This document shows positions 8,411 to 62,891 of a DNA stretch of 64,000 nucleotides, piece after piece. Made by a program: the position numbers and the translations under genes. The notes below the pieces were generated by a model. The model was not told the DNA's origin. It saw nothing but the letters and a program-made list of their open reading frames with translations, and did no database searches. Within the stretch, counting starts at the first letter, position 1, and each line of letters starts with the position of its first letter. The stretch is from Candidatus Omnitrophota bacterium. Its GTDB lineage: Bacteria > Omnitrophota > Gorgyraeia > Tantalellales > Tantalellaceae. The stretch covers positions 7,137-71,136 of the forward strand of contig JBDRNE010000025.1 in NCBI GenBank assembly GCA_043811395.1, read 5' to 3'.

Positions 8411-8450
8411 AATTAATGTCTGATTTTTAAATAAACAACGGTAAAAACAA

Positions 8451-13446: not shown

Positions 13447-13462
13447 CCAAAAGAAGTATCGG

Positions 13463-17674: not shown

Positions 17675-19009
17675 ATGAAAAGCGATAAGATGAGGAAAAT
17701 GTTAAAATTTGGAATCAGGCAGTTTTATCATATTCGGGAAGGCGGAATTCCTGTACTATTTCGAAAAGTGGTTATTTTATTCCGGGTGTCTTTTGAAATG
17801 TTATTAGTCTTGTTGGCGGTTCCGATAGTGCTTTTTGCGCGGTTGTTAAAACCAATTATCTGGATACGGTTTGGGTGTCTTATTAGTCCCAGGATTGGAC
17901 ATTTTGCGGCCAATACGGAAATGTATATGTGTTTTCGCGATATGGACGAGCGTAGTAAGCGCCGATTAGATCTGTTTTATTGTACAAAACCGATTTGTAA
18001 TCGCCAGTTAAAAAAAATGTGGGGACGAGTTTTACATATTTTTAAGCTAGTACGCTGGTGTGATAAAGCAAATCAATTATTGCCGGGAGGAAAAGATTAT
18101 AGGGTTGTTTTATTGTCGGATAGAGATACATGTGGTGTCCTTCAGCAGGTTAAGAAACATCTTTTTTTTACAGACAGAGAAGATCGGTTCGGTAAGAAAG
18201 AGATCGAAAAAATGGGGATTTCTACAGATGCTTCTTTTGTTTGTTTTTACGCTCGTGACGCCGCGTATCTTGATTCTATAGCTCCGGGAATTGATTGGAA
18301 GTATCACAACTACAGAGATTCAAACATAAAGGACTATCTTCTTGCGGCAGAAGAACTAACAAGAAGAGGGCATTTTGCCGTTAGAATGGGAGCTGTGGTG
18401 AAAGATGAGTTAAAAGTCAGTAATCCCTCAATAATTGATTACGCATCAAAGGGAAGAACCGATTTTATGGATATATATCTTGCAGCAAACTGCAAATTTT
18501 TTCTTTCATCTACAGGAGGAATTAATGCGGTAACGACAGTGTTTAGGCGTCCGGTAGTTTTTGTGAATAATATGCCGCTTGCATGTTTTCCTGCTTCAAA
18601 TTATGGGGACTTATTTATTCCAAAAAAATTATGGTTGCGAGACGAACGTCGTTTTTTAACTTTTCAAGAGATTTTAGATTCGGAAATAGCTTTTTTCTTT
18701 TTTTTCGAACAGTATGAGAATAGAGGAATTGAACTTGTTGACAATACTCCGGAAGAGATTATGGATGTGACTGTGGAAATGGATCAGCGTTTAAACGGAC
18801 AATGGCAAACTATGGAAGAAGATGAAGAATTGCAGAGATATTTTTGGTCGTTGTACAATTCGGAAGAATACAAACGATATTGTAAGATGTTTCGAAGATT
18901 TGGCAATATGCCGTATCATCGAATACCATGTCGTATTGGTGCTAAGTTTTTGCGAGAAAATAAAGAATTGCTATACGGCAAGAGGATAATGGGAATTGAT
19001 CTCAAATAA
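17675..19009 (+). CDS. hypothetical protein, possibly a GT-B-like glycosyltransferase / capsule-type transferase; N-terminal hydrophobic segment
   Basis: 444 aa; AGGAGA RBS; N-terminal TM-like helix (LLVLLAVPIVLFARLL); no motif I can assign with certainty. The layout (N-terminal domain plus C-terminal STGG-containing region FFLSSTGGINA) is reminiscent of GT-B sugar transferases. Confidence 0.35.
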   Translation: MKSDKMRKMLKFGIRQFYHIREGGIPVLFRKVVILFRVSFEMLLVLLAVPIVLFARLLKPIIWIRFGCLISPRIGHFAANTEMYMCFRDMDERSKRRLDLFYCTKPICNRQLKKMWGRVLHIFKLVRWCDKANQLLPGGKDYRVVLLSDRDTCGVLQQVKKHLFFTDREDRFGKKEIEKMGISTDASFVCFYARDAAYLDSIAPGIDWKYHNYRDSNIKDYLLAAEELTRRGHFAVRMGAVVKDELKVSNPSIIDYASKGRTDFMDIYLAANCKFFLSSTGGINAVTTVFRRPVVFVNNMPLACFPASNYGDLFIPKKLWLRDERRFLTFQEILDSEIAFFFFFEQYENRGIELVDNTPEEIMDVTVEMDQRLNGQWQTMEEDEELQRYFWSLYNSEEYKRYCKMFRRFGNMPYHRIPCRIGAKFLRENKELLYGKRIMGIDLK

Positions 19010-19038: not shown

Positions 19039-19839
19039 ATGAATAGCAGAACAAAAAACTTGAAATTCAAACAAACATCCGTAAGTAAAGAAATCGCGGG
19101 AAAACTTTTTTTCTTTGAAGGTTATAGCGAAAAGAATGTTGAAGATGGAGTAGATTCGTTTAAACATTTTTTAAAGAAATACAAAAAACTATACAGAATT
19201 CTGAAGGTTATGATCTCACCTGTATGTTTTGATAATTCGTTGGGTCGGTTCATAAATAAAGAGATTGGTAATCAAGAAGGTTGTTTTATAAACTTAGGAT
19301 CAGGGAATGAACGAATTCATGAGAAAGTAGTTAATTTTGATATTTTTGGCTATGATGAAGTGGACATTATTTGTGATATTTGCAGTCTTCCAATTGAAGA
19401 TAATTCGGTTGATGTGGTTTTTAATTTGTCTGTGTTAGAACATGTTCCATTTCCGCAGAAGGTTGTATCTGAAATTTGGCGGGTACTTAAACCTGGCGGA
19501 TTGGTTTTTTCTGATGTGCCGTTTGTTATGGGGTTTCATGCTTCGCCATATGATTATAGCCGATGGACAGCTGTTGGCATAAAAAAACTTTACGCGAAAT
19601 ATGACATTTTAGATTTTAAAGTTAACGGAGGGCCGACTTCCGCATTTTTGTGGATTTTTCAGGAATGGTTTGCTATGCTGTTATCCTTTGGTATAAAGGC
19701 GTTATATCTTTTATTGCACATTTTTATAATGTGTTTGACTTTTCCGATAAAGTTTATCGACATAATTTTGAGATATCATCCAATGGCCGAAAATATTGCG
19801 GCCTCATATATTTTGATTGGAAGAAAAACCTATGAGTAG
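19039..19839 (+). CDS. class I SAM-dependent methyltransferase (Methyltransf_11-like)
   Basis: INLGSGNERI motif I, DIICDICSLPIEDNSVDVVFNLSVLEHV motif II/III region, VLKPGG post-III motif. Confidence 0.6.
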   Translation: MNSRTKNLKFKQTSVSKEIAGKLFFFEGYSEKNVEDGVDSFKHFLKKYKKLYRILKVMISPVCFDNSLGRFINKEIGNQEGCFINLGSGNERIHEKVVNFDIFGYDEVDIICDICSLPIEDNSVDVVFNLSVLEHVPFPQKVVSEIWRVLKPGGLVFSDVPFVMGFHASPYDYSRWTAVGIKKLYAKYDILDFKVNGGPTSAFLWIFQEWFAMLLSFGIKALYLLLHIFIMCLTFPIKFIDIILRYHPMAENIAASYILIGRKTYE

Positions 19840-21772
19840 TTTAAAAAAGTATATAGATTCTTTTACTCATTCCTTGGTAATTCAGTTTATCTGTAGAAAA
19901 AAAATTACAATATTTGTTGGTGCGGGTCTTATATTTTTTGTAGTGTTTTTAGCGGTAAACAATTATTCTCCGATCATAGGATTGTGGGAAGGATCGGTTG
20001 TATATTGGAATTTTTTGCCGGAAAGACAACCTTCCTTAATGTTGTCAATTTCAGTGTCTGGGGATACTATCAGTATGCATGGTAGGGGGTATGCTTTATT
20101 ATACATTTCCCGTTGGGTATTGGATATAGTTGGGCATAGTCTTACAATGATGAGGCTTTTTCCCGTTATGTATGGACTTAGTGCCCTTTTTTTATTTTTC
20201 ATTGTTTTAAAAAGATGGTTTGGGGTTAAAACTGCGTTTTTAGGTGTACTTTTATTATCAACAAATCATGTGTTCTTAACCTATCAGCATATGTTGGTTG
20301 TGCAGATGGTATCTCTCGCGGCTGTATTATTTTGCATTGAACGTTTTCAAAATCTCAACTATAAACACACTAAGGTTGCGGCAATTACCATGGGATTGGC
20401 CTGTGCTTTAGTGTCTCCGCACTACATTATAGGTCGTTTTTGCATGCTGGCAATTCTGATGTTTTATGTCATAGACTGTGGAGGTAGCTATACCGCTTGT
20501 AGTAAAGATTATACGTCGATTAGTGCTCGTGAAAGGGTGAACACAATTGTAATTATATTTCTGAGTGCAATAGCCATACTATTTCTTTTCTATCCAGGGA
20601 ACGTTTTTTTACTTTTAAGCAAAAAGTTTATATTCACTGCGGCCGGAGAATATACCGTTACTTGGCGTGAAGCCCTAAACAGTATTGTACATAATGCTAA
20701 ATTTTTTTTAAGATACTTTGCTCTTGGAAATTTTTGCTCTAAATATCCCGATGACATTCTGGTAACTTTGCCGTATCCACTCGAAAGTAAGATAATTACG
20801 GTTTTGGCAGTTTTAGGGATAGCAGTTAGTTTGAAGAGAGTCAAAAACTACAAAATATTGTTTTTATTCATGATGTTATCAGTTACGAGTTTTATGCCGT
20901 TTTTTTCTCAAATTTATCCGGGAAAAATTTTTTTTGATTCTTCGAGTTTAAGTTCTTTTCGTACATTTTTTATTATTCCCTTCATGCTTATTTTCGCGGT
21001 TTTGGGAGTGAAGTATGTTTATCGAAAAATAAAAGATAGAAAAGTTTTTTGGATAAAATGTTTTTATATAGCGCTTGTTGTGTTGATTCTGTCTAGGCTT
21101 GGAGTTTGTTTGTACGAACAAAACCGGTTCCAGGCATATGTTGATAACTATCAATTTGATTTTTCACAGAAAGCTGTCCAAGCATCTCGAGATGAAAATA
21201 TTGCTTTACCGAATGACCAGAAAAGAGAATTGAACATAAATCAAATCTATTATCATAATCTTGCACAATTCATTGCTGATAAAATAGATGAGAAAAAAAA
21301 TATTTCGCAAAATACAGAATTGATCTATATACCAGAGGAATATTATACCCCGGATTATTATAGGTATGGTTCGGGAAATATGCCATTTAAGGGTGATTCA
21401 TATTACTTCAAGATGTACTTGACGTTTTACCTGAGGGAAGCAGGGATGAATGTGGGATATTTGGCTCTTAAAACAGATTATCCTCAGCCTCTAACGGGTA
21501 GGATAATTGGAATGCTGGAAAATTTCAGCTATACAGAAGGTGCAATGCGACAGCTAAAAACAAATCCGAAATATAACAATTTTATCGGTAATTTGCGCGA
21601 GTGGTCCCCGATTAAATCTAATTTTAGGCAGATTGGGGAATATGTTGTAAATGGAGCTGGACTTTGCCCTGCTGAATATATTTTGGTCACGAATAAAGAG
21701 GAAGCAGATGCCTGCGAGAAGCTACTGGGGAAAGCTATAACATTGAGAATGCCTGATGATATAGCAAAATGA
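19832..21772 (+). CDS. polytopic membrane protein, GT-C fold glycosyltransferase-like (ArnT/PMT family-like)
   Basis: ~12 predicted TM helices in the N-terminal two-thirds, a large C-terminal soluble domain, and an early loop RWVLDIVGHSLTMMRLFPVMYGLSALFLFFIVLKRWFG resembling the ArnT/PMT first-loop region. ATG 19832 overlaps the upstream TAG. Confidence 0.45.
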   Translation: MSSLKKYIDSFTHSLVIQFICRKKITIFVGAGLIFFVVFLAVNNYSPIIGLWEGSVVYWNFLPERQPSLMLSISVSGDTISMHGRGYALLYISRWVLDIVGHSLTMMRLFPVMYGLSALFLFFIVLKRWFGVKTAFLGVLLLSTNHVFLTYQHMLVVQMVSLAAVLFCIERFQNLNYKHTKVAAITMGLACALVSPHYIIGRFCMLAILMFYVIDCGGSYTACSKDYTSISARERVNTIVIIFLSAIAILFLFYPGNVFLLLSKKFIFTAAGEYTVTWREALNSIVHNAKFFLRYFALGNFCSKYPDDILVTLPYPLESKIITVLAVLGIAVSLKRVKNYKILFLFMMLSVTSFMPFFSQIYPGKIFFDSSSLSSFRTFFIIPFMLIFAVLGVKYVYRKIKDRKVFWIKCFYIALVVLILSRLGVCLYEQNRFQAYVDNYQFDFSQKAVQASRDENIALPNDQKRELNINQIYYHNLAQFIADKIDEKKNISQNTELIYIPEEYYTPDYYRYGSGNMPFKGDSYYFKMYLTFYLREAGMNVGYLALKTDYPQPLTGRIIGMLENFSYTEGAMRQLKTNPKYNNFIGNLREWSPIKSNFRQIGEYVVNGAGLCPAEYILVTNKEEADACEKLLGKAITLRMPDDIAK

Positions 21773-21830
21773 CGCTTATTTTGTGAAACTTAACATAGAA
21801 AAAGGTTAATAGACTAATAAGGTGGTAAAG

Positions 21831-23411
21831 ATGCGAATAATGTTTATTATAAACGAGTTAGGAATAAACGCGCCTTTTGGACCGATGATATTATCGGCGG
21901 TTCTTAAAAAAAAAAGACATGATGTTAGTCTAGGTGTAATACAAAAGGAAGACCTTGAAAAAAAAATAGGTTCATGGAAACCAGATATTCTCGCGTATAG
22001 TATGATGTCAGTTGACATGAAGGACATGAAGAAGTTCAATGATTCTTTGCGAAAAAAAATAAAGATTTTCACTATTTTGGGCGGTGCTCATCCTACCTTA
22101 GATCACAGTTGTATAGATGATCCCGGAATTGACGCAATTTGTGTGGGAGAAGGGGAAGAGGCGATAGTTGAGGTTGTTGAGGCGCTAGAAAATGGAAAAA
22201 GTTTGGAAGGTATTAAAAACATTATTACAGATAAGGCGTCTCCTTTAGAGTTGAGAGATCTTATAGAAGATTTAGATACGGTTCCTTTTATGGACAGGGA
22301 ACTCGTTTACGCGCATCGGGAAATGGCACGTTTTGGGGTTAAAGGGATTTGGACAAGCAGAGGATGTGTTTTTAGGTGTCCGTATTGTTTTAATAGCCGT
22401 ACGAATGAAATTTTCAAAAACAAAGGAAGAATTTTTAGACGGCGCAGTGTTGAGTCAGTAATAAAAGAAACCGAACAATTGGTTTCAAAGTATCGAGTTG
22501 ATTTTATTCGGATGCAGGATGATGTTTTTATTTATAAAGTTGATGATTGGTTAAAAGAATTTGTGGATAAATGGGCAACTCGAATAAAAATTCCATTCTA
22601 TTGTTTACTGCGTTCAGAGACTGTTACGGAAGAAATGGCTTTTTATTTAAAAAAGGCAGGTTGTTTTTCTATCGCGATGTCAATAGAGTCAGCAGATGAT
22701 GATATAAGAATTCGTATGATGCGCCGAAAAGTTGAAAAATCAGATTTAGAGAAAGCGTTCAGTATTTTTAAGGAACATAAGATCAATGTGTACGCTAACA
22801 CAATGCTGGCACTTCCATTTACAAAGCTTGAAGATGATATTGCGTCGGTCGATTTTGCTATAAAAGTTAAGCCTGAAATGCCGAACTTTTCAATTTTTAT
22901 GCCATATCCTGGTACGGATTTAGGAGATTATTGCGCGAGAATCGGAGTGTATGATGTTAACCAGAATCATATAGAATACGGTATGCGTAACGCAAGTTCT
23001 TTAAAATGTTTTACAAAAAAAGAAAAAGATGCCCAATATAACCTTTGCGAACTGGCAATAATCGCTGTTAAATTACCTTTTTTGAGAAATTTAATCGTAA
23101 ATCATCTTATACATTGGAGCCCGAATAATTTTTTCTTTTTTATGCACTACATTTTTTCTATTACAGCTTATGGGAAAAAGATCTTTTATTTCAAGCATAC
23201 ATTTTTTGAATATTTTGAACTATTGGGACGGACCCTAAAACATTATATCTATGATTTTTTGAAAGGTGAAAAGAAAGATATGTGTAAAGAGAAGCAAGAA
23301 AAAATAAACAAATGTGAGACGGTTCTTGCCGAAAAAGAGCGTAAAGAAGAACTTGAAAAATGTATGGAGGCGATGGAAACCGGTGAACCAGTCGGCTGGT
23401 TGGCAAGTTGA
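21831..23411 (+). CDS. cobalamin (B12)-binding domain radical SAM enzyme (class B)
   Basis: N-terminal B12-binding domain (FTILGGAHPTL, CVGEGEEAIVEVVEAL) then SRGCVFRCPYCFNS. AAGGTGG RBS before ATG 21831. Confidence 0.8.
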   Translation: MRIMFIINELGINAPFGPMILSAVLKKKRHDVSLGVIQKEDLEKKIGSWKPDILAYSMMSVDMKDMKKFNDSLRKKIKIFTILGGAHPTLDHSCIDDPGIDAICVGEGEEAIVEVVEALENGKSLEGIKNIITDKASPLELRDLIEDLDTVPFMDRELVYAHREMARFGVKGIWTSRGCVFRCPYCFNSRTNEIFKNKGRIFRRRSVESVIKETEQLVSKYRVDFIRMQDDVFIYKVDDWLKEFVDKWATRIKIPFYCLLRSETVTEEMAFYLKKAGCFSIAMSIESADDDIRIRMMRRKVEKSDLEKAFSIFKEHKINVYANTMLALPFTKLEDDIASVDFAIKVKPEMPNFSIFMPYPGTDLGDYCARIGVYDVNQNHIEYGMRNASSLKCFTKKEKDAQYNLCELAIIAVKLPFLRNLIVNHLIHWSPNNFFFFMHYIFSITAYGKKIFYFKHTFFEYFELLGRTLKHYIYDFLKGEKKDMCKEKQEKINKCETVLAEKERKEELEKCMEAMETGEPVGWLAS

Positions 23412-23470
23412 ACATATTGCACGTATCAGGTGTGTCACGCAGTACGTTAAAAAATTAACGAGGTGAGAGT

Positions 23471-24403
23471 ATGCAGATAACAATTGTTATTCCGATTTAT
23501 AATAGCGAAAGTACGATTGGGAAGCTTGTGCCGAATTTGATCGAAAATTTGAAAGAAGTAAGTCTTCAAATAGTTTTAGTCAATGACGGAAGCAGTGACA
23601 AAAGTCATGAAGCGTGTCTTAGTCTTCGGGAAGCATATTCTTCGATAGTTGAGTATATAAATCTTGCCAGGAATTTTGGTGAACATAACGCGGTTATGGC
23701 AGGGTTGAATTACGCTAAGGGAGATTATGTCGTAATTATGGATGATGATTTTCAGAATCCGCCTCGTGAGGTGCCCCGTCTGGTTGCGGAAGCGAAGGAT
23801 AAGGGGTATGATATTGTTTATACATGTTATGAGAAAAAGTGTCATAGTTGGTTTAGAAATTTTGGAAGTAAGTTTAATGAAAAAATAGCGAATTTAATGC
23901 TGGATAAACCTAAAGACTTGTATTTATCAAGTTTTAAGTGTTTGAGCGCGTTTGTTGTTCGGGAGATAATAAAGTATAAAGGACCGTTTCCTTATATTGA
24001 CGGATTAGCTTTAAGATGCACACGAAACATAGGAATTATTAAAGCTCAGCATCAGAAGCGGGAAGACGGCAAATCGAATTATACGTTAAAAAAACTAGTT
24101 AATTTGTGGCTAAATATGTTTGTCAATTTTTCGATAATTCCTTTACGCATAAGTGTTTTTCTGGGGTTAATATTGGGTGGAATGGGAATACTCATAAGCA
24201 TTTATGTGATAATTGAAAAAATATTGTATCCGGGTGTTCCCGTGGGATGGACGTCTCTCATGTTAGCTGTAATGGTGTTTTCAGGAGTACAGCTTTTAAC
24301 GCTAGGGCTTTTAGGGGAATATGTTGGGCGGTTATTATTGAGTAATAATCAGACGCCGCAATTTGTTGTTAGGGAAATTTATGCAGGCGAAACGAATGAA
24401 TAA
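23471..24403 (+). CDS. GT2-family polyprenyl-phosphate sugar transferase (ArnC/GtrB/DPM1-like) with C-terminal TM hairpin
   Basis: IVIPIYNSESTI, VNDGSSDKS, DDDFQNP (DXD) motifs; two C-terminal TM helices (IPLRISVFLGLILGGMGILISIYVI; LMLAVMVFSGVQLLTLGLLGEYVGR) as in ArnC/GtrB. Confidence 0.8.
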   Translation: MQITIVIPIYNSESTIGKLVPNLIENLKEVSLQIVLVNDGSSDKSHEACLSLREAYSSIVEYINLARNFGEHNAVMAGLNYAKGDYVVIMDDDFQNPPREVPRLVAEAKDKGYDIVYTCYEKKCHSWFRNFGSKFNEKIANLMLDKPKDLYLSSFKCLSAFVVREIIKYKGPFPYIDGLALRCTRNIGIIKAQHQKREDGKSNYTLKKLVNLWLNMFVNFSIIPLRISVFLGLILGGMGILISIYVIIEKILYPGVPVGWTSLMLAVMVFSGVQLLTLGLLGEYVGRLLLSNNQTPQFVVREIYAGETNE

Positions 24404-25397
24404 TATATCATGTAAGGATTTTTTCAAAAACAAAAAAGTACTTATAACAGGCGGGTTGGGTTTTATTGGTTCAAATTTGGCAATTAGGCTAGTTGAACAA
24501 GGCGCGACGGTTACTTTGCTGGATGGAATTATTGAGGGACACGGGGGTAACGAATTCAATATAGACCCAATAAAGGGGGAAGCAGAAGTTGAATTTGGTG
24601 ACATAAGAGATGCAGTTCTAATGAACAAAATTGTAAAGGACAAGGACTTTATTTTTCATTTGGCAGGGCAGAATGACCATGTTTTAAGCATTAGGGATCC
24701 TTTTCCGGATATTGATATTAACATAAAAGGGTCTGCCGTTCTTTTGGAAGCGTGCAAAAATTTTAATAAAACCGCAAAATTAATTTATACCGGAACACGT
24801 GGAGAATATGGAACTGCGGCAAGCTTGCCGGTCAAAGAAACCGCGGCCATAAACCCGAAAGGAATTTATGAACTTTCAAGTTTGACGGTGCAGAAATTAT
24901 TTAAGATTTATCATGAAAACCATGGAGTTAAATCTATAACTCTAAGATTGACTAATATTTATGGTGAGCGCGCGCAAATGAGGCATAATCGGTTTGGAGT
25001 AGCAAACTGGTTTGTCCGTTTGGCTGTTGAAGGCAAGACAATAAAAGTTTTTGGTGATGGGTCGATATTAAGAGATTTTCTGTATGTTGAAGATACTGTC
25101 AGGGCCCTTTTGACCTGCGCTATGTGTGAAGAGGCTTATGGCGAGGTTTTTAATGTAGGGCATAATAAACCCAGCACTTTTTTGGAATTAGCAAAAAATA
25201 TTGTAAAAATAGCGGGAAAGGGAGACTGGGAAATGGTTCCCTTTACAAAAGAACGACTTATCCAGGAGCCAGGTGATTTTTATTCAGATATAACGAAGAT
25301 TAAGAATATTGTCGGATGGGAGCCAAAAGTTTTTTTAGAGGAAGGAATTGGAAGAACGGTTAGGTATTATGAAGAGCACAAACAATATTATTGGTAA
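24381..25397 (+). CDS. NAD-dependent epimerase/dehydratase (extended SDR)
   Basis: VLITGGLGFIGSNL Rossmann motif, catalytic YELSSLTVQK (YxxxK); ~339 aa. Confidence 0.75.
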   Translation: MQAKRMNNISCKDFFKNKKVLITGGLGFIGSNLAIRLVEQGATVTLLDGIIEGHGGNEFNIDPIKGEAEVEFGDIRDAVLMNKIVKDKDFIFHLAGQNDHVLSIRDPFPDIDINIKGSAVLLEACKNFNKTAKLIYTGTRGEYGTAASLPVKETAAINPKGIYELSSLTVQKLFKIYHENHGVKSITLRLTNIYGERAQMRHNRFGVANWFVRLAVEGKTIKVFGDGSILRDFLYVEDTVRALLTCAMCEEAYGEVFNVGHNKPSTFLELAKNIVKIAGKGDWEMVPFTKERLIQEPGDFYSDITKIKNIVGWEPKVFLEEGIGRTVRYYEEHKQYYW

Positions 25398-26520
25398 AAA
25401 AAACAGCAGTATACCTTTTGTGGACTTGTCAGCGCAGTATATGGGGATAAAAGGAGAAGTTGATAAATCTGTGAACGGAGTTATTACAAAGGGATGGTTT
25501 GTTTTAGGCAAAGAACTTGAATGTTTCGAGAAAGAGTTTGCGGCGTATTGCGCCTCAAAATACGCGGTTGGTGTGGGTTCAGGCACGGCGGCATTATTTT
25601 TGTCTTTAGTTGCGTGCGGGCTTGAACCTGGGGACGGTGTTATAACAACTCCGAATACAGCTCTTCCAACAATTTCCGCAATAACTTGGGCAAATTGCCG
25701 GCCTTTTTTTGTTGATATTGCCCCTGATACGTATACTTTGTGTCCCGAAAAATTGGAATGTTTTTTACAAAACAATTTTTCAAAATTTAAGATTAAAGCG
25801 ATAATTCCGGTTCACCTTTACGGCAATTCCGTTGATATGGATCCTATTTTGAAAATCTCGGAAAAATACGGATTAAAAGTTATTGAGGACGCTTGCCAGG
25901 CCCATGGGACAGAATACAAAGGGAAAAAAACAGGTACAATGGGAACTGCGGGATGTTTCAGTTTTTATCCGACAAAAAATTTAGGTGCATATGGTGACGC
26001 GGGAATGGTTGTTACCGATAGCGAAAAAATAGCAAACAAGCTATGTATGCTGAGAAACTATGGAGAGAAAAGCAAATATTTCAATGTGGAAAAAGGAGTT
26101 AATTCAAGACTCGATGAAATTCAAGCCGCTGTTTTAAGAGTAAAACTAAAATATCTTGATACTTGGAATCAAAAAAGGCGAGGGCTTGCTGGAGTATACG
26201 CGGATTTATTAAAAGATACATGTATTCAATTGCCGGTAGAAAAAAAATACGCGAAGCACATATTCCATCTTTATGTTGTGAAAACTAAAAATAGGGATGG
26301 TTTAAAAGAAAAACTTATGAATAATGGAATAACTACGCATATTCATTATCCTATGCCTGTTCATCTTCAGCCGGCATATAAAGATTTGGGATATTCTTCG
26401 GGAACGTTTCCTGCGGCGGAAAAGTGTTCGGAAGAGATTCTTTCTTTACCCATGTTTCCGGAGTTGGAAAGGGAACGCGTGGAAAGAATTTGTAGCGTTG
26501 TAAAGGAATTTGCCGGATAG
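25369..26520 (+). CDS. DegT/DnrJ/EryC1/StrS-family PLP-dependent sugar aminotransferase
   Basis: IPFVDLSAQY N-terminal signature, GSGTAAL, DACQAHG and SFYPTKNLGAYGDAG (PLP lysine region) motifs. Confidence 0.85.
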   Translation: MKSTNNIIGKKNSSIPFVDLSAQYMGIKGEVDKSVNGVITKGWFVLGKELECFEKEFAAYCASKYAVGVGSGTAALFLSLVACGLEPGDGVITTPNTALPTISAITWANCRPFFVDIAPDTYTLCPEKLECFLQNNFSKFKIKAIIPVHLYGNSVDMDPILKISEKYGLKVIEDACQAHGTEYKGKKTGTMGTAGCFSFYPTKNLGAYGDAGMVVTDSEKIANKLCMLRNYGEKSKYFNVEKGVNSRLDEIQAAVLRVKLKYLDTWNQKRRGLAGVYADLLKDTCIQLPVEKKYAKHIFHLYVVKTKNRDGLKEKLMNNGITTHIHYPMPVHLQPAYKDLGYSSGTFPAAEKCSEEILSLPMFPELERERVERICSVVKEFAG

Positions 26521-26578: not shown

Positions 26579-28339
26579 ATGAAGGCAGAAATTTTTGTGC
26601 GAAAAATTTTTAAAAAATTTCCATTACTTTTAACCGGCAATATTGTCTTGTCGGTAATAATGAGTTTATTTGCGGCATGTTCTTTGTTTACTATCAGCCC
26701 TCTTGTTGATTTTTTGATTAATCCGGATCTCAAGAATATAAGCCCTTTGACTCAAAAAGCCATAGACATATTGAAATGGTTTAATATGCCAGTATCGTTA
26801 TGGAGTTGGCTGGCAGTGTTTGTTGTTTTCGTAGCTTTGAGCAGTTTATTTCAAGTATTCGCGAAGTATTCGATACTTAAAACAAAATATGCGGTTTTGC
26901 GAGATATTATCTTAGGCACATTTAAAGATTTTTTTGATTCAGGCTGGTACTTTTTCTCGAGCGGCAAGCAAGGAGTACTTTTAAATACTTTTACGAGAGA
27001 AATTACGACTGTGGGAGACGCTTTCGGTGCGATGGCGCTTTTTTTCTCGAGTATTTTGCAGACTGTTTTTTTTCTGACGGTTCCTTTTTACATTTCATGG
27101 CAGGTAACTATTATTAGTCTCGGCGTATCGCTTTTATTTGCTGTTCCGTTCATTCTGCTCGGTAAATACAGCTATCGGTTGGGGGTTTTAAATACAACAA
27201 CCTCCAATCATACAAAGTCGGTCATTCAAGAAAATATAAGTCTCGCAAAAATTGTGTTGGGCTTTGGTAAACAGCAAAAAAGCGTGGATAGCCTTGCTAA
27301 TGCCTTTGACGCGCATCGGGACGCGACACTTAAATCACAGTTTTTAAGTATTGCTATTCCTATTCTGTACGATCCTTTTGGAGTTGTAATGATCGTTATC
27401 GCGCTTTTTACCGCTCGCAGATTCAATGTACCGTTATCAGAACTAATGGTGCTTCTCTTGGCGTTAAGGCAGGTTGCCTTTAGCGTAGGGAACCTAACCG
27501 CGCAGAAAAATTCTTTAGAGAATTTTTTTCCGAGTTATGAGCAAATTGAAAACTTAAGGAATCGCGCCAAGCGCTTAAAACAAAAATCGGGAGAAAAATG
27601 CTTTAATGGTATTGAGCGGGAAATTTCTCTTCAAAATGTTTCTTTTAGTTATCCCGGACATGGAGAAGTATTAAGCGCTGTGAGTGTTCGCGTGCCAAAA
27701 GGCAAAATGATAGCTTTTGTGGGAGGATCAGGCGCGGGGAAATCTACTTTAATTGATGTGATACTGGGATTTCACTCTCCAAGTGATGGTCGTGTTCTTT
27801 GTGACGGAGTTTCTTTGGCAGAGTTTGAAATTAATTCTTTTCGTAGGAAAGTTGGATATGTACCGCAGGATAGCGCGCTTTTTAACATGACAATAAAAGA
27901 TAATTTATTATGGGCTTTGGAAACGGCTCAAGAAAAAGACATTATTTCTGCTTGTTGCCAGGCTAATGCCGATGAGTTCATTAGGCAACTTCCGGAAGGT
28001 TATAATACTTTTGTGGGAGACCGGGGAGTTCGGCTTTCGGGAGGTCAGGTCCAAAGAATAGCCTTAGCAAGGTCTATTTTGCGGAAGCCTGAGCTTTTGA
28101 TTCTGGATGAAGCGACAAGCGCGTTGGATACACATTCGGAAAAATTAATTCAGCAGGCTATTGAAACAATCGCGAAAAAAACAACGGTAATTGTTATCGC
28201 GCACAGGCTCTCAACCATTGTAAACGCGGATTACGTGTACGTATTAGAAAAAGGACGTATTGTCGAAGAGGGCACTTATCGTTGGCTTATGGAGAACAAT
28301 GGATATTTTAACCGTATGGTGGCGATGCAGACCCTGTGA
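26579..28339 (+). CDS. ABC exporter, fused permease + ATPase (MsbA/PglK/Wzk-like type)
   Basis: Six N-terminal TM helices, Walker A GGSGAGKST, ABC signature LSGGQVQRIALARS, Walker B ILDEATSALD, H-loop AHRLST. Confidence 0.85.
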   Translation: MKAEIFVRKIFKKFPLLLTGNIVLSVIMSLFAACSLFTISPLVDFLINPDLKNISPLTQKAIDILKWFNMPVSLWSWLAVFVVFVALSSLFQVFAKYSILKTKYAVLRDIILGTFKDFFDSGWYFFSSGKQGVLLNTFTREITTVGDAFGAMALFFSSILQTVFFLTVPFYISWQVTIISLGVSLLFAVPFILLGKYSYRLGVLNTTTSNHTKSVIQENISLAKIVLGFGKQQKSVDSLANAFDAHRDATLKSQFLSIAIPILYDPFGVVMIVIALFTARRFNVPLSELMVLLLALRQVAFSVGNLTAQKNSLENFFPSYEQIENLRNRAKRLKQKSGEKCFNGIEREISLQNVSFSYPGHGEVLSAVSVRVPKGKMIAFVGGSGAGKSTLIDVILGFHSPSDGRVLCDGVSLAEFEINSFRRKVGYVPQDSALFNMTIKDNLLWALETAQEKDIISACCQANADEFIRQLPEGYNTFVGDRGVRLSGGQVQRIALARSILRKPELLILDEATSALDTHSEKLIQQAIETIAKKTTVIVIAHRLSTIVNADYVYVLEKGRIVEEGTYRWLMENNGYFNRMVAMQTL

Positions 28340-30016: not shown

Positions 30017-30147
30017 TATAACATGTTGTATAAGGGTTTCATTCAGATCATAACTTTTATGTCAGATGAATCTGTTTTTGTGAGTGATATGTTTGATATC
30101 TTATAAAGTTATCTTTGTTTTAGGTCTCAGAGTGAAAGAAAAGTTTT

Positions 30148-30503: not shown

Positions 30504-30521
30504 AATATCAAAAAAATAAAA

Positions 30522-33039: not shown

Positions 33040-33057
33040 AATGGATAGAAGTATAGA

Positions 33058-33657: not shown

Positions 33658-33668
33658 AGGAGTTATTG

Positions 33669-34211: not shown

Positions 34212-34260
34212 TGTAAATGATATGACGTGATCGTGAATAAATATTTAAAAGAGAGGTGTT

Positions 34261-35259: not shown

Positions 35260-35283
35260 AATGATCTTGGATAGGGAGGAACA

Positions 35284-35514: not shown

Positions 35515-35522
35515 GGTATAAA

Positions 35523-39851: not shown

Positions 39852-39859
39852 TTTTGGGG

Positions 39860-53028: not shown

Positions 53029-54018
53029 ATGGATTCTATAACAGTCGAAAATGTTACGAAAACAAAAACTTTAAAAAAAGCCATTGTTGTCCCGTCTTAT
53101 AAAGTGTCGGATAGCTTGCCGCTTCTCTTAGAAAAAATACCATCGACGAGCGTTGATTATATCATTGTGGTTGATGATAAATGCCCTGATGGTTCAGGTC
53201 TTGGCGCGGAGAAACTTAACAAAAAAAATTGTGTTGTAATTTATCATGAACAAAACCAAGGCGTTGGCGGCGCGGTTATTTCAGGGTATTTAAAAGCACT
53301 TGATTTAGGTTGTGACATAATTGTAAAAATGGACGGAGACGGTCAAATGGATCCGGCGGATTTAGAAAAGTTTATAGAAGCACTTTCGCGCGGGTCAGCC
53401 GATTATGTTAAAGGCAATAGGTTTAATGATGTTACGGCGTTAAGAAATATGCCGAAAATACGTCTTTTCGGTAACAGTGTACTGTCTTTTATCATCAAAG
53501 TGGTTTCCGGCTATTGGGATATAATGGACCCCACGAACGGTTATACCGCAATCCATAGAAAGGTATTGGAAAGGATTGATTTGAATAAAATATCTAAAGG
53601 ATATTTTTTTGAAACAAATATGCTGATAGAGCTTAATATTGTTGACGCGGTTGTAAAGGATATTTCTATCCCGGCTAAATATGATAATCAAAACAGTTCT
53701 CTTAGCATAGGAAGAGTTCTCATAGAGTTTCCGTTTAAGCTGATGAATGGGCTGTTAAGAAGAATTTTCTTAAAATATTTTGTTTATGATTTTAATGTCG
53801 CGTCAGTTTGTATTTTGCTGGGAGTTCCACTTTTTATGTGTGGTATCATTTTTGGCGCTAAAGAATGGATAAATTCGTGTTTAACTGGCCAGCCGAGGAC
53901 TTCCGGAACGATTATTCTTATCGCGTTAATTTTAATTGTTTCTTTTCAGATGCTACTCAAAGCGGTAAGCATAGACATTTATAAAACACCTAAAAAGCCT
54001 CAATTTCGAACAGACTGA
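53029..54018 (+). CDS. GT2-family polyprenyl-phosphate glycosyltransferase (DPM1/GtrB-like) with C-terminal TM segments
   Basis: AIVVPSYKVSDSL, VVDDKCPDGS and DGDGQMD (DXD) motifs; C-terminal TM helices (VASVCILLGVPLFMCGIIFG; IILIALILIVSFQMLL). Confidence 0.7.
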   Translation: MDSITVENVTKTKTLKKAIVVPSYKVSDSLPLLLEKIPSTSVDYIIVVDDKCPDGSGLGAEKLNKKNCVVIYHEQNQGVGGAVISGYLKALDLGCDIIVKMDGDGQMDPADLEKFIEALSRGSADYVKGNRFNDVTALRNMPKIRLFGNSVLSFIIKVVSGYWDIMDPTNGYTAIHRKVLERIDLNKISKGYFFETNMLIELNIVDAVVKDISIPAKYDNQNSSLSIGRVLIEFPFKLMNGLLRRIFLKYFVYDFNVASVCILLGVPLFMCGIIFGAKEWINSCLTGQPRTSGTIILIALILIVSFQMLLKAVSIDIYKTPKKPQFRTD

Positions 54019-57664: not shown

Positions 57665-58963
57665 ATGGAAACAAAAATAAAAAGTATAACAAATTGGATA
57701 ATACGCCACAAGGGGGAACTTGTAGTGCTTTTTGTGTTTTTATTATTTGCTTTTGGGTATAACATATATCGTGTTCAAGGTGATGGAAAACTGTATTATG
57801 CTTTGTTGGAGAGAACTTTGAATATACCTGATCCTGAAAGTGCGCCTAATTTTCTTGAGTTGGGTTTTCTTCAAAGTATTTGTTCTTTTTTTAATATGCC
57901 GTTTTATCTTGCTGGTTACGCCATAGAAAAAATGCTTGCCGCGCCGATACTTCTCAAAGGAATAACCCTTCGTTCAGCGTTCATAAATATTGCCAGTAAT
58001 TTTTATATAGGCGCGTCTATAATTCTGATTTTTAAAATACTGGCCATGCTGAACTTTAAGCATAGAATAAGTTCTGTTCTCAGTATTCTTTTTTCAACGT
58101 CAGCGTTTGTCGCGGCGGTAGTTATGCCGGCGTATAATCACGCGGTGGATGTACTTATAGTTACTTTTTTTATATATGTGATATTGAAGCGTGAGAGGAT
58201 GTTGCCGATTAAAAGTTTCTGGATTGGCGCGGTTTATTCTTTGGCCATAGCTTCGCGATATTTTAATTTTGTGTTAATAGTTCCGTTACTTGTTATGCTT
58301 ATGATAAAAAAAGATTATTCAAGGATAAAATATATTTTGTTTGGATTCTTTAGCACAATATGGATTTTACCTGTACTGTTCTATTATTACAACGGAAGTC
58401 CGTTTAATCCATGTTTTTCTCAAGAAGCGGTTGGAAATGTTATTCATCGTATGACATTATTTCCGAAGTATACGTTTAGATATTTTGTTCACCCTTTGCA
58501 CGGATTATTTGTTTGGTCGCCGGTAACTATACTTTCAGCCATAGGGTTAGGGGTGATGCCTCGGGACAAAAAAGAGATAGGGTACATGTTTTTGGCGATG
58601 TGGGCACTAATTGTTATGATGAATGGCTATTTCTTTGAATGGACCGCTGGCTGGTCGTTTTCAAATCGTTATCTTACGGGATTATTTCCTATCTACATAG
58701 TCGGATTGGCCGCTTTGGCTGAAAAATATGGAAAAAGAATAGTTGTTTTAGCGGCGGCGTTAACTTTCTATTCAGTTTTTTTATTTTTCAACTGGTATAT
58801 GTGTGTAATAGACGGCGGCTGGGGCACGCCTTGGAATATGATTGAGGCATGGCAAAGGGGAAAGTTTTTTTATAGTACAGGTAAAGAGCTGAATTTTCGC
58901 GTATTTTGTGAAATGATGTATGAACACTCGAGGTATAAATATATTTTCAGGGGTTTTAATTAA
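57665..58963 (+). CDS. polytopic integral membrane protein of unknown function (possible GT-C-like transferase or polymerase)
   Basis: ≥10 hydrophobic helices across 433 aa, no soluble catalytic domain recognisable; start ATG 57665 chosen downstream of the preceding stop (the track ORF starts at 57596). Confidence 0.4.
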   Translation: METKIKSITNWIIRHKGELVVLFVFLLFAFGYNIYRVQGDGKLYYALLERTLNIPDPESAPNFLELGFLQSICSFFNMPFYLAGYAIEKMLAAPILLKGITLRSAFINIASNFYIGASIILIFKILAMLNFKHRISSVLSILFSTSAFVAAVVMPAYNHAVDVLIVTFFIYVILKRERMLPIKSFWIGAVYSLAIASRYFNFVLIVPLLVMLMIKKDYSRIKYILFGFFSTIWILPVLFYYYNGSPFNPCFSQEAVGNVIHRMTLFPKYTFRYFVHPLHGLFVWSPVTILSAIGLGVMPRDKKEIGYMFLAMWALIVMMNGYFFEWTAGWSFSNRYLTGLFPIYIVGLAALAEKYGKRIVVLAAALTFYSVFLFFNWYMCVIDGGWGTPWNMIEAWQRGKFFYSTGKELNFRVFCEMMYEHSRYKYIFRGFN

Positions 58964-58964
58964 A

Positions 58965-59372
58965 ATGAAAAAGATTGTTTCAATATTATTAGCTGTATGG
59001 ATGTTTGTATTATTTCTAAATTATTCTGGTTTTTTTCGGGATGATACAGATCCTGTCGGTGTGACGGAATTTTATTTTCGATGTATGGGGGCAGGTGATT
59101 GGACATTAACATACCAAATTACCGATCCAAAAAGTTTTGATCATCAAGAATTGTTGGATTTGAGGAACAATTTATTTTTTAAAGAACAACTTTGCAACTA
59201 TAAGACGGAATTGAAAACCTTGGAAGAGAAAAAAGCAGTTACGGAAACTCAGCTATTTTTCGAAAGTGGAAAAACTATTAAATGTACTACAGTACTGGAG
59301 AAACTGGGTACAGACGTGTGGTATATTAGGGAAACCCGTTATGATGAGGGAAAAATGGCGGTCAAAAAATGA
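58965..59372 (+). CDS. small hypothetical protein with N-terminal signal/anchor helix
   Basis: MKKIVSILLAVWMFVLFLNYSG hydrophobic N-terminus, then a soluble ~110-aa domain with no recognisable motif. Confidence 0.35.
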   Translation: MKKIVSILLAVWMFVLFLNYSGFFRDDTDPVGVTEFYFRCMGAGDWTLTYQITDPKSFDHQELLDLRNNLFFKEQLCNYKTELKTLEEKKAVTETQLFFESGKTIKCTTVLEKLGTDVWYIRETRYDEGKMAVKK

Positions 59373-61955: not shown

Positions 61956-62891
61956 ATGAAAAATAATAAATGTTCTCACGGGGTTATGTTTCACCATTTT
62001 TATGACCATACTCATGTAAAGAGCCAGGGGTCAATTTCTGCTGAACAATTAAGGCAAATAATAGAGTCTTACAACAGTGATTATGAAATTTTGTCTGCCG
62101 ATGAATGGATGTATAAAGCATGCCGTGGAGGGTTAAACGAAAATGAAGTCTGTCTGACTTTTGACGACGCTCTTTTATGTCAGTATGAGATAGCCCTGCC
62201 TGTTTTAGAAGATCTAGGTCTTACCGCTTTTTGGTTTATTTATTCGTCCATAATTGTTGGCAATGTAGAAATGCTGGAAGTATATAGAAAATTCCGGACA
62301 GATCATTTCAGGGATATTAACGATTTTTACGAAAAATTTTTTAATACGGTAAAACGTTTAGAACTTTGTATGAACATAGAATCAGTTCTAGAAAAAATTC
62401 CGAGAACTTTTCTTTATGATTTTTTGTTTTATTCGAAAGAAGACAGAGAGTTCAGATATTTTAGGGATATTATGCTCGGCGCAGATAATTATCGGAAGAT
62501 TATGAGTCTAATGATGGAAGAATGTAATGTTGATATAGACGAATTTGCAGATGGTTTATGGATGAAAGAAAAACATTTGAAGGATTTAGATTCGAAAGGT
62601 CACATTATCGGTCTGCATTCGCATAGTCATCCCACTTCAATGGCTTCATTATCCAGGAAAGAACAAAAGAAAGAATATAAGCTGAACTATGATATCCTTT
62701 ATCAAATATTGAACAAACATCCTGAAACTATGGCGCATCCGTGTAATTCATACAATCAAGACACGATGTCTATTCTTAAAGAATTTGATATTAAAATAGG
62801 TTTCAGGTCTAATATGGGAAAATGTCCTGTTTCTGAGTTGGAATTCAAGAGGGAAGATCACGCTAATGTTATGAGAAGGATAAACGGATGA
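61956..62891 (+). CDS. polysaccharide deacetylase (NodB-homology, CE4) family protein (ArnD-like deformylase/deacetylase candidate)
   Basis: TFDD (NodB motif 1, LTFDDAL) and HSHSHP (His-x-His metal motif) present; 311 aa. Confidence 0.6.
   Translation: MKNNKCSHGVMFHHFYDHTHVKSQGSISAEQLRQIIESYNSDYEILSADEWMYKACRGGLNENEVCLTFDDALLCQYEIALPVLEDLGLTAFWFIYSSIIVGNVEMLEVYRKFRTDHFRDINDFYEKFFNTVKRLELCMNIESVLEKIPRTFLYDFLFYSKEDREFRYFRDIMLGADNYRKIMSLMMEECNVDIDEFADGLWMKEKHLKDLDSKGHIIGLHSHSHPTSMASLSRKEQKKEYKLNYDILYQILNKHPETMAHPCNSYNQDTMSILKEFDIKIGFRSNMGKCPVSELEFKREDHANVMRRING

Follow-up and report, generated by a model that had tools for sequence, protein, structure and literature searches.

We analysed a 64-kb window of DNA from a diderm Omnitrophota bacterium, and the best explanation of this window is that it is a single large surface-glycan locus. 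Every ORF that an earlier, sequence-only reading had cited was found on the + strand where that reading placed it. The genes are arranged as in an operon: they lie on one strand and either overlap or are 30-60 nt apart. Four of the products (the 646-aa GT-C, P0001; the 310-aa GT2; the 432-aa GT-C, P0018; and the 264-aa formyltransferase, P0069) are identical to database proteins from a Candidatus Omnitrophota MAG. Other glycan genes in the window encode a WecA-type initiating transferase, many Leloir glycosyltransferases, and a Wzy_C-family protein (47630), as well as the ABC exporter listed here with the genes that matter for our argument:

17675..19009, + strand: TIGR04372-family glycosyltransferase with an N-terminal TM helix (NCBIfam TIGR04372, 230 bits, cutoff 45), a syntenic companion of module 1
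19039..19839, + strand: class I SAM methyltransferase with a C-terminal hydrophobic anchor (PF08241, 52.7 bits; hydrophobic segment 222-240)
19832..21772, + strand: GT-C fold glycosyltransferase of module 1, 646 aa, with about 11 TM helices, a C-terminal periplasmic domain, and an invariant Glu53 in the first outside loop
21822..23411, + strand: B12-binding radical SAM enzyme (PF02310, 57.6 bits; PF04055, 65.1 bits), between the GT-C and the GT2
23471..24403, + strand: polyprenyl-phosphate glycosyltransferase of module 1, GT2, ArnC/GtrB/PgfS type, 310 aa, carrying the metal motif DDDFQN and, at its C-terminus, a TM hairpin
24396..25397, + strand: extended SDR, a nucleotide-sugar epimerase or dehydratase, 333 aa (PF01370, 151 bits)
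25369..26520, + strand: DegT-family PLP sugar aminotransferase, closest to C-3 aminotransferases (PF01041, 375 bits)
26579..28339, + strand: fused TMD-NBD ABC exporter (HepA-family 429 bits, MsbA 341, PglK 243)
53029..54018, + strand: polyprenyl-phosphate GT2 of module 2, DPM1/AglJ/PpgS type (PF00535, 66.5 bits; DGDGQM motif)
57665..58963, + strand: GT-C fold glycosyltransferase of module 2, 432 aa, membrane domain only, with invariant Arg36 and Asp40 after TM1
58920..59372, + strand: small single-TM protein, the conserved downstream partner of the 432-aa GT-C (a 124-146 aa protein lies 3' of the GT-C in loci L008, L009, L113, L114, and L115)
61956..62891, + strand: cytoplasmic NodB-fold deacetylase, first gene of a distal cassette (PF01522, 64 bits; TFDD and HSHSH motifs in its sequence)
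62888..63682, + strand: formyltransferase-fold protein, 264 aa, second gene of the cassette (PF00551, 34 bits, cutoff 26.1), overlapping the deacetylase by 4 nt

The 646-aa protein belongs to a small family (215 clusters among 1.84 billion representatives), and its own sequence matched nothing in Pfam, NCBIfam, or the sequences in PDB. Of 46 relatives, 28 match PF13231 (PMT_2). The AF2 model (pLDDT 67, pTM 0.71) is of moderate confidence and its TM-scores against GT-C structures reach only 0.36-0.41, but the top 29 Foldseek matches in PDB are all GT-C (AglB, STT3, PglB, ArnT, Pmt4, ALG9, AftA, and Emb). The earlier description of a 12-TM GT-C-like protein was right about the fold but not about the helix count, as topology prediction gives about 11 TM helices and a soluble domain of about 200 aa. 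For the 432-aa protein, which had been described only as polytopic, the AF2 model (pLDDT 87, pTM 0.90) also has the GT-C fold; its best Foldseek matches are PglB, ArnT, ALG12, AftB, and ALG9 (probability 1.0, TM-scores 0.47-0.53), and some of its homologs match PF13231 or are named GT39. A check for conserved acidic residues in the loops, which had been proposed along with the assignments, turned up Glu53 (invariant across 46 sequences) in the larger protein and Asp40 in the smaller one.

The GT2 of module 1 (PF00535, 103 bits) has hydrophobic C-terminal helices at residues 230-248 and 263-281. Its alignments with ArnC (9hwj, E 1e-47) and GtrB (5ekp, E 2e-42) run the full length of the protein and cover the TM hairpin, which bears out the ArnC/GtrB layout that had been proposed for it. 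Its DDDFQN motif is DADLQN in ArnC (motif comparison: 10.1101/2025.01.29.634835). Its best match in NCBIfam is PgfS (184 bits), with ArnC at 181 bits, and both scores are below the equivalog cutoffs (500 and 529). The GT2 of module 2 has two C-terminal TM helices (257-275 and 295-313) and matches DPMS (5mlz, E 6e-17), AglJ (NCBIfam, 77 bits), and PpgS (44 bits), so it was aptly called DPM1-like.

Do these GT2s work with the neighbouring GT-C proteins? The adjacency could be incidental, with GT2s and polytopic proteins acting in separate steps and the polytopic proteins being, for example, polymerases, ligases, or oligosaccharyltransferases that act on Und-PP-linked glycans. The top fold matches of the 646-aa protein are indeed oligosaccharyltransferases (AglB, STT3, and PglB) that use PP-linked donors, and glycan genes are so dense in this cluster that chance neighbours are expected. 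However, GT-C and GT2 genes remain adjacent in contigs that otherwise have no genes in common with the window, and the slot of polymerase or ligase is already filled by the separate Wzy_C-family protein. The second pair stays together in all five loci where we looked (L008, L009, and L113-L115): each has a GT-C of the 432-aa type, the small partner (59-64 bits by phmmer in L008 and L009), and a 235-aa GT2 with a DUF2304 protein. For the module 1 GT-C family, 12 of 20 metagenome loci have a short DPM1/PpgS-like GT2 beside the GT-C; where the loci are distant, the adjoining GT2 is of this short PpgS-like type and not ArnC-like. We consider incidental adjacency to be quite improbable, and the conservation in other genomes backs the suggestion that there are two parallel lipid-linked side-branch systems.

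The gene order around module 1 is also conserved in part. The relative L003 shares the block of TIGR04372-family glycosyltransferase, ABC exporter, methyltransferase, GT-C (40% identical), GT2, and DegT. There, the ABC exporter ortholog (671 bits) is immediately upstream of the methyltransferase and GT-C, and the methyltransferase ortholog (357 bits) is immediately upstream of the GT-C and overlaps it, as in the window, where the overlap is 8 nt. Homologs of the TIGR04372-family glycosyltransferase are near the GT-C in L003 (270 bits), L097, and L104. Of 20 metagenome loci with a module 1 GT-C, 8 have a B12 radical SAM gene beside it, and L097, L101, and L105 keep the gene order of the window. 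We did not expect a B12 radical SAM gene between a GT-C and a GT2, and the arrangement recurs in marine contigs.

The SDR (a gene call from locus L001, with an alternative upstream start at 24363) is most similar in PDB to UDP-hexose 4-epimerase (153 bits), with RmlB at 123 bits and UXS at 110 bits. By score, it is not an ArnA-type decarboxylase. Its activity is uncertain because a simple pattern search found no canonical YxxxK. That the SDR and DegT genes adjoin the GT2 is a weak sign of shared function, because nearly all of the genes in this 64-kb cluster are glycan genes.

With the lipid-linked product of the adjacent GT2 as donor, the GT-C proteins might instead modify something other than a polysaccharide: lipid A or core, in the manner of ArnT, or envelope proteins, in the manner of PMT and PgfM1. 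The family of the larger GT-C is an offshoot of PMT_2, which includes both ArnT and protein O-mannosyltransferases, and the best NCBIfam match of its GT2, PgfS, comes from a protein glycosylation system. Also, one homolog is beside mlaA and mlaC (outer-membrane lipid homeostasis genes), and in L006/L101 a stand-alone triad of GT-C, radical SAM, and GT2 lies among housekeeping genes, outside any glycan cluster. On the other hand, the genes sit among polysaccharide assembly genes in the window, L003, L009, L113, and L115. We think that another acceptor is unlikely, although less so than incidental adjacency.

The sequence-only reading had joined the first GT-C, its GT2, and the DegT aminotransferase to the distal cassette in one Arn-like pathway. 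In such a pathway, the DegT enzyme would aminate a keto sugar, the formyltransferase would N-formylate it, and the GT2 would load undecaprenyl phosphate solely with the formylated form. The NodB enzyme would deformylate this lipid-linked sugar, and the GT-C would place the free amino sugar on lipid A or a glycan. All of these classes of enzyme are present in one co-directional cluster, and the Pfam matches confirm the DegT, formyltransferase-domain, and NodB-type families. The window has no sugar aminotransferase other than the DegT protein. The cassette lies just 3 kb from the second GT-C. The deacetylase has no predicted signal peptide or TM helix, as would suit a cytoplasmic-face enzyme such as ArnD. 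The best structural relatives of the formyltransferase are sugar N-formyltransferases (PseJ, E 3e-6; dTDP-Qui4N formyltransferase; and VioF; for ArnA, E 2e-4), and 18 homologs all keep N126, H128, and D165. Because this triad is kept and both polytopic proteins have the GT-C fold, the reading came through both of the checks on which it was to stand or fall, namely the fold of the membrane proteins and the Asn/His/Asp triad.

The specific chain of reactions fares worse. An Arn-like chain calls for amination at C-4, but the DegT protein groups with C-3 enzymes: against C-3 aminotransferases it scores 440 bits (7b0d), 348 (QdtB), 320 (DesV), and 245 (WbpE), and against ArnB just 172. The deacetylase was said to resemble ArnD, but it had no ArnD match. 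ArnC is no nearer a relative of the GT2 than PgfS or GtrB is, and at a position that is Met in ArnC and Asp in GtrB, the GT2 has Ser. ArnE/F are absent from the window.

Also, the cassette travels on its own. The formyltransferase has more than 3400 homologs, and the 120 listed are 59-73% identical. In 80 loci that we fetched, spread over many phyla with Gram-positive bacteria and CPR among them, the pair is 51-71% identical. A deacetylase homolog is present in 75 of the 80. In 69 it was scored as the gene immediately 5' of the formyltransferase, on the same strand; in 4 more, we attribute the other placement to artefacts of stop-to-stop ORFs. In contrast, an ArnC-like GT2 is within 10 kb of the cassette in 4 of the 80, and neither GT-C family is near it in any of them. 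The commonest neighbours are nonulosonic-acid genes (NeuB-like in 31 of 80 and NeuC-like in 29). The best explanation is that this is an autonomous, widely transferred cassette rather than a distal partner of the GT2s and GT-Cs. From this distribution, its most likely role is to change the N-acyl group on an amino sugar at the nucleotide-sugar stage; we propose that deacetylation comes before formylation. An integrated Arn-like pathway therefore seems very doubtful, about on a par with incidental adjacency. What survives of it is the GT-C folds, the polyprenyl-phosphate GT2s, the formyltransferase triad, and the two parallel systems. The link to the Arn pathway, which is known for antibiotic resistance, is valid only in the general sense of loading a lipid carrier and attaching the sugar outside the cytoplasm.

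We favour the view, with a probability of about 0.62, that the glycan locus contains two Gtr-like periplasmic (extracytoplasmic) glycosylation modules and that the deacetylase/formyltransferase pair is separate from them. Most likely, each GT2/GT-C pair loads a sugar onto a membrane lipid carrier and attaches it outside the cell membrane. Both GT2s belong to the right family and have the DxDxQ metal motif; by homology to ArnC, GtrB, and DPMS, they would load undecaprenyl phosphate with one sugar, drawn from a nucleotide sugar, at the cytoplasmic face. A transporter would then flip the lipid-linked sugar. The window encodes no flippase of the GtrA, SMR, or MATE type, and the adjacent ABC exporter is a candidate flippase for the lipid-linked monosaccharide or for the whole glycan. 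Finally, at the periplasmic face, the GT-C would pass the sugar on to an acceptor; the putative catalytic base is the acidic residue that is invariant directly behind TM1 (Glu53 or Asp40). The donor for module 1 is probably a modified hexose, possibly aminated and methylated, because its block includes an anchored SAM methyltransferase, a B12 radical SAM enzyme, an SDR, and a C-3-type aminotransferase.

Among known systems, the modules resemble Gtr-type O-antigen glucosylation (GtrA flippase, GtrB GT2, and a GtrV-type GT-C) and its relatives (CsbB/GtcA/YfhO and GacI/GacL), in which a GT-C inside a polysaccharide locus has as its partner a membrane GT2 of the GtrB/ArnC/DPMS family. Unlike those systems, the modules lack GtrA, MATE, and SMR genes and are interspersed with genes for a B12 radical SAM enzyme and a membrane-anchored methyltransferase. 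Their GT-Cs are from small families, these members of which Pfam does not cover. Auxiliary enzymes inside the module are also seen in pentofuranose systems, where three components with varied flippases are joined by enzymes that act on the lipid-linked sugar (PPPRS/MATE/GT136; PMC11127046).

The Arn pathway (ArnA, ArnB, ArnC, ArnD, ArnT, and ArnE/F), which puts aminoarabinose on lipid A, shares with this locus an ArnC-type GT2, an ArnT-like GT-C fold, an SDR and DegT next to the GT2, and formyltransferase-fold and NodB proteins in the same cluster. It differs in its aminotransferase, its decarboxylase, and its flippase, and the cassette proteins are not orthologs of ArnA-N and ArnD. The cassette formyltransferase keeps the Asn-x-His and Asp catalytic motif of PseJ, VioF, and dTDP-Qui4N formyltransferase, its best solved relatives, but the similarity is limited to about 70 residues around the active site (26-30 bits), and its family is marked by an invariant N-terminal motif of its own, FTSNQPRH, and by a NodB gene as obligatory partner.

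Module 2 can be compared with a mycobacterial system in which PpgS (Rv3631), Rv3632 (DUF2304), and the GT-C Rv3779 add galactosamine to arabinogalactan. The loci related to module 2 likewise pair the GT-C with a short GT2 and a DUF2304 protein. In the window, the two TM helices of the GT2 itself replace the separate DUF2304 protein, and the GT-C is much smaller than the mycobacterial one and comes with a single-TM partner of its own, about 125-150 aa long.

The window encodes two sets of genes that pair a GT2 glycosyltransferase of the polyprenyl-phosphate type with a predicted GT-C membrane protein. These are modules 1 and 2 below, and a deacetylase/formyltransferase cassette lies further downstream. 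The ORF coordinates in the sequence-only reading were all correct.

Genes of the two modules and of the cassette (a single coordinate is a gene start in the window)
17675, + strand: TIGR04372 glycosyltransferase, flanking module 1
19039, + strand: methyltransferase
19832-21772, + strand: 646-aa predicted GT-C protein of module 1
21822-23411, + strand: radical SAM protein
23471-24403, + strand: GT2 of module 1
24396-25397 (alternative start 24363), + strand: SDR protein
25369-26520, + strand: DegT aminotransferase
26579, + strand: ABC exporter, the sole transporter found in the window
53029-54018, + strand: GT2 of module 2
57665-58963, + strand: 432-aa predicted GT-C protein of module 2
58920-59372, + strand: small single-TM protein
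61956-62891, + strand: NodB deacetylase
62888-63682, + strand: formyltransferase, 264 aa

The GT2 at 23471-24403 (PF00535) does have the ArnC/GtrB layout that had been proposed for it: residues 2-305 give full-length alignments with ArnC (E 1e-47) and GtrB (E 2e-42) that include the C-terminal hairpin, with TM helices spanning residues 230-248 and 263-281. The metal motif reads DDDFQN (91-96), and the corresponding motifs are DADLQN in ArnC, DADLQD in GtrB, and DADLQH in dolichol-phosphate mannose synthase, or DPMS (10.1101/2025.01.29.634835). The DxDxQ motif and the C-terminal hairpin together identify it as a polyprenyl-phosphate GT2. The same is true of the GT2 at 53029-54018, which has the motif DGDGQM and two C-terminal TM helices; it was described as DPM1-like, and it matches archaeal DPMS (E 6e-17) as well as the AglJ and PpgS models. 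We placed both enzymes by HMM scores and pairwise alignments. The first is not an ArnC ortholog: the NCBIfam equivalog model for ArnC has a cutoff of 529 bits, and the enzyme reaches 181.5. Its NCBIfam score for PgfS is about the same (183.7 bits), and both are far below the equivalog cutoffs. In our reading of the alignments, R137 and S141 of ArnC are retained as R129 and S133, R128 of ArnC corresponds to Tyr120, and Ser154 falls where Met is reported for ArnC, Asp for GtrB, and Gly for DPMS (10.1101/2025.01.29.634835).

Neither membrane protein matched Pfam, NCBIfam, or PDB sequences, whether we searched with single sequences or with family profiles. We predict that both are GT-C proteins, as had been suggested, because their modeled structures match GT-C enzymes, some relatives match PMT_2, and there are conserved residues just after the first TM helix (TM1). 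For the 646-aa protein, an AlphaFold2 model from 15 homologs (pLDDT 67, pTM 0.71) was compared to the PDB with Foldseek, and the best 29 matches were all GT-C enzymes (AglB, STT3, PglB, ArnT, Pmt4, ALG9, AftA, and Emb), with E values from 1e-5 to 4e-2 and modest TM-scores of 0.26-0.41. The model of the 432-aa protein (pLDDT 87, pTM 0.90) matched PglB, ArnT, ALG12, AftB, and ALG9 with a probability of 1.0 and TM-scores of 0.47-0.53. Among diverse full-length members of the 646-aa family, 28 of 46 match PF13231 (PMT_2), and some homologs of the 432-aa protein either carry PF13231 or are named GT39. The catalytic carboxylate of GT-C enzymes sits directly after TM1. At this site, the 646-aa family has a W52-E53 motif that is invariant or nearly so in the 46 relatives, and Glu53 is their only invariant acidic residue; in the 432-aa family, Arg36 and Asp40 are invariant across 24 homologs. 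Both proteins have Lys/Arg-rich N-termini, which fits a cytoplasmic N-terminus with the acidic residue in the first periplasmic loop. They differ in that about 200 residues at the C-terminus of the 646-aa protein form a soluble domain and the 432-aa protein is the membrane module alone. Because the hhalign match between the two families is weak (probability 17%), we do not claim that they are close paralogs. The 646-aa family is also rare, with only 215 clusters among the 1.84 billion representatives covered by a full profile search.

Homologous loci link these GT-C families to GT2 enzymes. In L003, the closest relative, whose GT-C protein is 40% identical, the block of TIGR04372 glycosyltransferase, ABC exporter, methyltransferase, GT-C, GT2, and DegT is retained, and the exporter (671 bits), methyltransferase (357), and GT2 (351) score at the ortholog level. 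We also compared 20 metagenome loci for the 646-aa family, mostly marine, with GT-C proteins that are 32-46% identical; a short DPM1/PpgS-like GT2 adjoins the GT-C gene in 12 of them. All five long contigs compared for the 432-aa family encode the GT-C protein, a single-TM partner of 124-146 aa that is homologous to 58920-59372, and a pair consisting of a 235-aa GT2 and a DUF2304 protein, and these genes are contiguous in two of the contigs (L114 and L115). This pair is the arrangement of the mycobacterial PpgS/Rv3632; the GT2 at 53029 instead has two TM helices of its own. These synteny patterns support two functional polyprenyl-phosphate GT2/GT-C pairs, and they back the earlier suggestion of two parallel lipid-linked systems. 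The conserved adjacency also lends indirect support to a polyprenyl-phosphate-linked sugar as the putative donor for the GT-C proteins.

The sequence-only reading went further and proposed a chain as in the Arn pathway, from amination and formylation through transfer and deformylation to a GT-C step. A specifically Arn-like identity is not supported, as five tests went against it: the aminotransferase, the SDR, the GT2, the flippase, and the distal deacetylase/formyltransferase pair. First, a DegT aminotransferase is indeed present at 25369-26520, and it does not look like ArnB, a C-4 enzyme that acts on a UDP-4-keto-pentose. Its scores against PDB entries are highest for 7b0d (440 bits), which is annotated as a scyllo-inositol transaminase, followed by QdtB (348), DesV (320), 5u1z (298), WbpE (245), and NtdA (183), versus 172 for ArnB and 175 for perosamine synthase. 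QdtB, DesV, 5u1z, WbpE, and NtdA are all C-3 aminotransferases. Second, the SDR protein (from 24363) does not resemble the UDP-glucuronate oxidative decarboxylase that forms the C-terminal part of ArnA: the ArnA model (cutoff 777) gives it 36.9 bits, and its best matches are epimerases and 4,6-dehydratases. Another SDR, at 52007, resembles GDP-fucose synthase rather than the decarboxylase. Third, the GT2 is equidistant from PgfS and ArnC by score, so it is not specifically ArnC. Fourth, we found no small multi-TM ORF in the window that could be ArnE or ArnF (the gaps between genes are either ORF-free or not long enough), nor any GtrA-family, MATE, or SMR flippase gene. Fifth, in the distal pair, the NodB domain at 61956-62891 is real, and it gave no match to ArnD: the only matches were generic NodB ones, with no ArnD family match at E ≤ 0.01 in NCBIfam or E ≤ 1 in the PDB.

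As an aside on the SDR protein at 24396-25397, a simple pattern search found no canonical YxxxK in it, and its GTRGEYG and IYELSSLTVQK stand in place of the S/T-x-E-V-Y-G and YxxxK typical of extended SDRs. To judge from these motifs, it may be catalytically atypical.

The formyltransferase does keep the Asn/His/Asp catalytic triad of N10-formyl-THF-dependent formyltransferases that had been expected of it. Its Pfam match spans only positions 100-151 of the 181 in the profile. The triad residues N126, H128, and D165 do not vary among 18 homologs, and they align with the active-site segment of PseJ. The best solved relatives are sugar N-formyltransferases (PseJ, dTDP-Qui4N formyltransferase, and VioF). 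The family has over 3,400 proteins, and the 120 listed homologs, all 59-73% identical to the window's protein, represent Planctomycetota, Bacillota, Proteobacteria, and Omnitrophota. We fetched 80 species-representative loci (51-71% identical), which add Bacteroidota, Acidobacteriota, and CPR lineages. A NodB gene is present in 75 of the 80. Our script placed it immediately upstream, in the same orientation, in 69 loci, or about 73 if we count four more loci whose scoring we attribute to artefacts of stop-to-stop ORFs. The window's 4-nt overlap between the two genes is also seen in the three contexts that we read in detail, and the cassette formyltransferases share an invariant N-terminal FTSNQPRH motif. 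Co-inheritance with the GT2 and GT-C genes, which the Arn comparison had assumed, failed: an ArnC-like GT2 is within 10 kb in 4 of the 80 loci, and neither GT-C family is in any. The neighbors are instead a NeuB-like synthase (31 loci), a NeuC-like hydrolysing 2-epimerase (29), a CBS-nucleotidyltransferase (20), a dehydratase (20), DegT (16), and acetamidino-forming amidotransferase/HisH/HisF sets (12). Because of this distribution and these neighbors, we view the pair as an autonomous cassette of nonulosonic-acid and other amino-sugar loci. It is very widely transferred and is separate from ArnA/ArnD. A nonulosonic-acid role does not fit the window itself, where homologs of NeuB, NeuC, the amidotransferase, and HisH/F are all missing. 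The simplest reading is an N-acyl swap on a nucleotide sugar, with deacetylation putatively followed by formylation. In general, a formyltransferase beside a NodB deacetylase should not be taken for ArnA/ArnD.

Both modules sit within what, from gene content, is a single glycan biosynthesis locus that takes up nearly the whole 64 kb. Identical database proteins assign the window to a 71-kb contig of a Candidatus Omnitrophota MAG. It is about 37% G+C with a strongly positive GC skew, and every sizeable ORF is on the + strand. Pfam and NCBIfam scans covered 57 ORFs and found about ten GT2 and GT4 glycosyltransferases and many SAM methyltransferases, along with the following.

Other features of the locus
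60510, + strand: WecA/MraY-family initiating transferase
47630, + strand: Wzy_C-family protein
39854-43191, + strand: CDP-glucose pathway, with scores above the equivalog cutoffs
35284-35511, + strand: ACP-like ORF, 75 aa
7145-8227, 10243-11688, 12376-14482, 21822-23411, 36314-37828, 44017-45480, and 54063-56856, + strand: radical SAM genes

The gene rmlA starts directly after the formyltransferase (62888-63682). At 4041-10228, an SDR, an HldE-like cytidylyltransferase/kinase, a GmhA-like SIS isomerase, a radical SAM-SPASM protein, and a split transketolase are grouped, and the set looks like a pathway to a heptose or a two-carbon-branched sugar. At 32365-36287, three hexapeptide acyltransferases are followed by a KAS III, the ACP-like ORF, and a FabG-like reductase; a comparable KAS III/ACP/reductase set adjoins the cassette in Paenibacillus polymyxa (L011 4685-7686). 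The 602-aa carbamoyltransferase at 1621-3429 (PF02543 and PF16861) implies O-carbamoylated sugars. It also occurs in a related Omnitrophota locus (L009 11679-13481), where it adjoins the 432-aa GT-C module. The region 43188-60406 shares a gene order with three Omnitrophota loci (L113, L009, and L115), namely GT2, B12 radical SAM, GT, GT4, Wzy_C, GT4, and, further on, GT2, GT-C, small partner, and GDSL, which suggests a surface glycan core that is conserved at the level of the phylum. The cluster is tightly packed except for two non-coding gaps of 500-600 bp (3430-4040 and 30017-30521) with no ORF of at least 50 aa; the second contains a weak remnant of a hexapeptide acetyltransferase (near 30400-30490). 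Rfam and tRNA scans gave no hits, and neither gap has an Rfam match. Upstream of the deacetylase is a 117-aa ORF (61573-61926) that, judged by its sequence, looks like a small winged-helix (MarR-like) regulator.

Of the nine radical SAM genes in the window, six encode a B12-binding domain. This abundance suggests that surface sugars are extensively methylated by radical chemistry and that the glycan is heavily methylated. Related Omnitrophota loci are equally rich in radical SAM genes and include an 880-aa fusion of a B12 radical SAM domain with a GT4 (L009 4078-6720). A B12 radical SAM gene adjoins the GT-C gene in 8 of the 20 metagenome loci, and the window's order of GT-C, radical SAM, and GT2 recurs on three marine contigs (L097 7426-11733, L101 4597-8906, and L105 2684-6919), in one of which (L101) the triad is flanked by unrelated housekeeping genes. 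The radical SAM protein at 21822 is at most a possible ortholog of these marine proteins: it belongs to the same broad clade, and the marine ones form a group apart. That a B12 radical SAM gene recurs within the module points to radical chemistry as a means of tailoring lipid-linked sugars. It is a long shot, but the triad could be a distinct type of extracytoplasmic glycosylation, in which the radical SAM enzyme, together with a membrane-anchored methyltransferase in Omnitrophota, would modify the sugar on undecaprenyl phosphate (by C-methylation, for example), and the GT-C enzyme would then install a methyl-branched sugar that is absent from nucleotide-sugar pathways. The logic would resemble that of ArnD or DprE1/E2, but with radical chemistry. 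Our literature searches found nothing specific on the combination of radical SAM and GT-C, on the deacetylase/formyltransferase cassette, or on PDB 7B0D.

From these folds, motifs, conserved residues, and gene orders, we infer the activities, donors, acceptors, and flippase in the following scheme. Module 1 would comprise 19039-26520, perhaps along with 17675 and 26579. The GT2 at 23471 would make Und-P-sugar from a nucleotide sugar, possibly supplied with the help of the SDR and the C-3-type aminotransferase. The sugar may be tailored by the membrane-anchored methyltransferase, which is translationally coupled to the GT-C gene, or by the B12 radical SAM enzyme. A candidate flippase, possibly the ABC exporter at 26579, would move it across the membrane, and the GT-C protein at 19832 would then use Glu53 to transfer it to a glycan or another envelope acceptor. 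Module 2 (53029, 57665, and 58920) would follow the same scheme, in which Asp40 would act as the catalytic residue and the small partner would be periplasmic.

Outside the cytoplasm, bacteria generally rely on pairs of a polyprenyl-phosphate GT2 and a GT-C enzyme to decorate envelope glycans, lipid A, and proteins, and such pairs drive antigenic variation and polymyxin resistance. The kind of system is well known; the GT-C families are new and rare, and the locus adds two uncharacterised ones from an uncultured phylum of nanobacteria. The pair design is common to Gtr, Arn, Pgf, and related systems, and a recent description covers variants that use other flippases and have auxiliary enzymes acting on the lipid-linked sugar (PMC11127046). 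With an intercalated B12 radical SAM gene and a membrane methyltransferase, and without a classical flippase, the Omnitrophota system is a variant of this design rather than a plain member.
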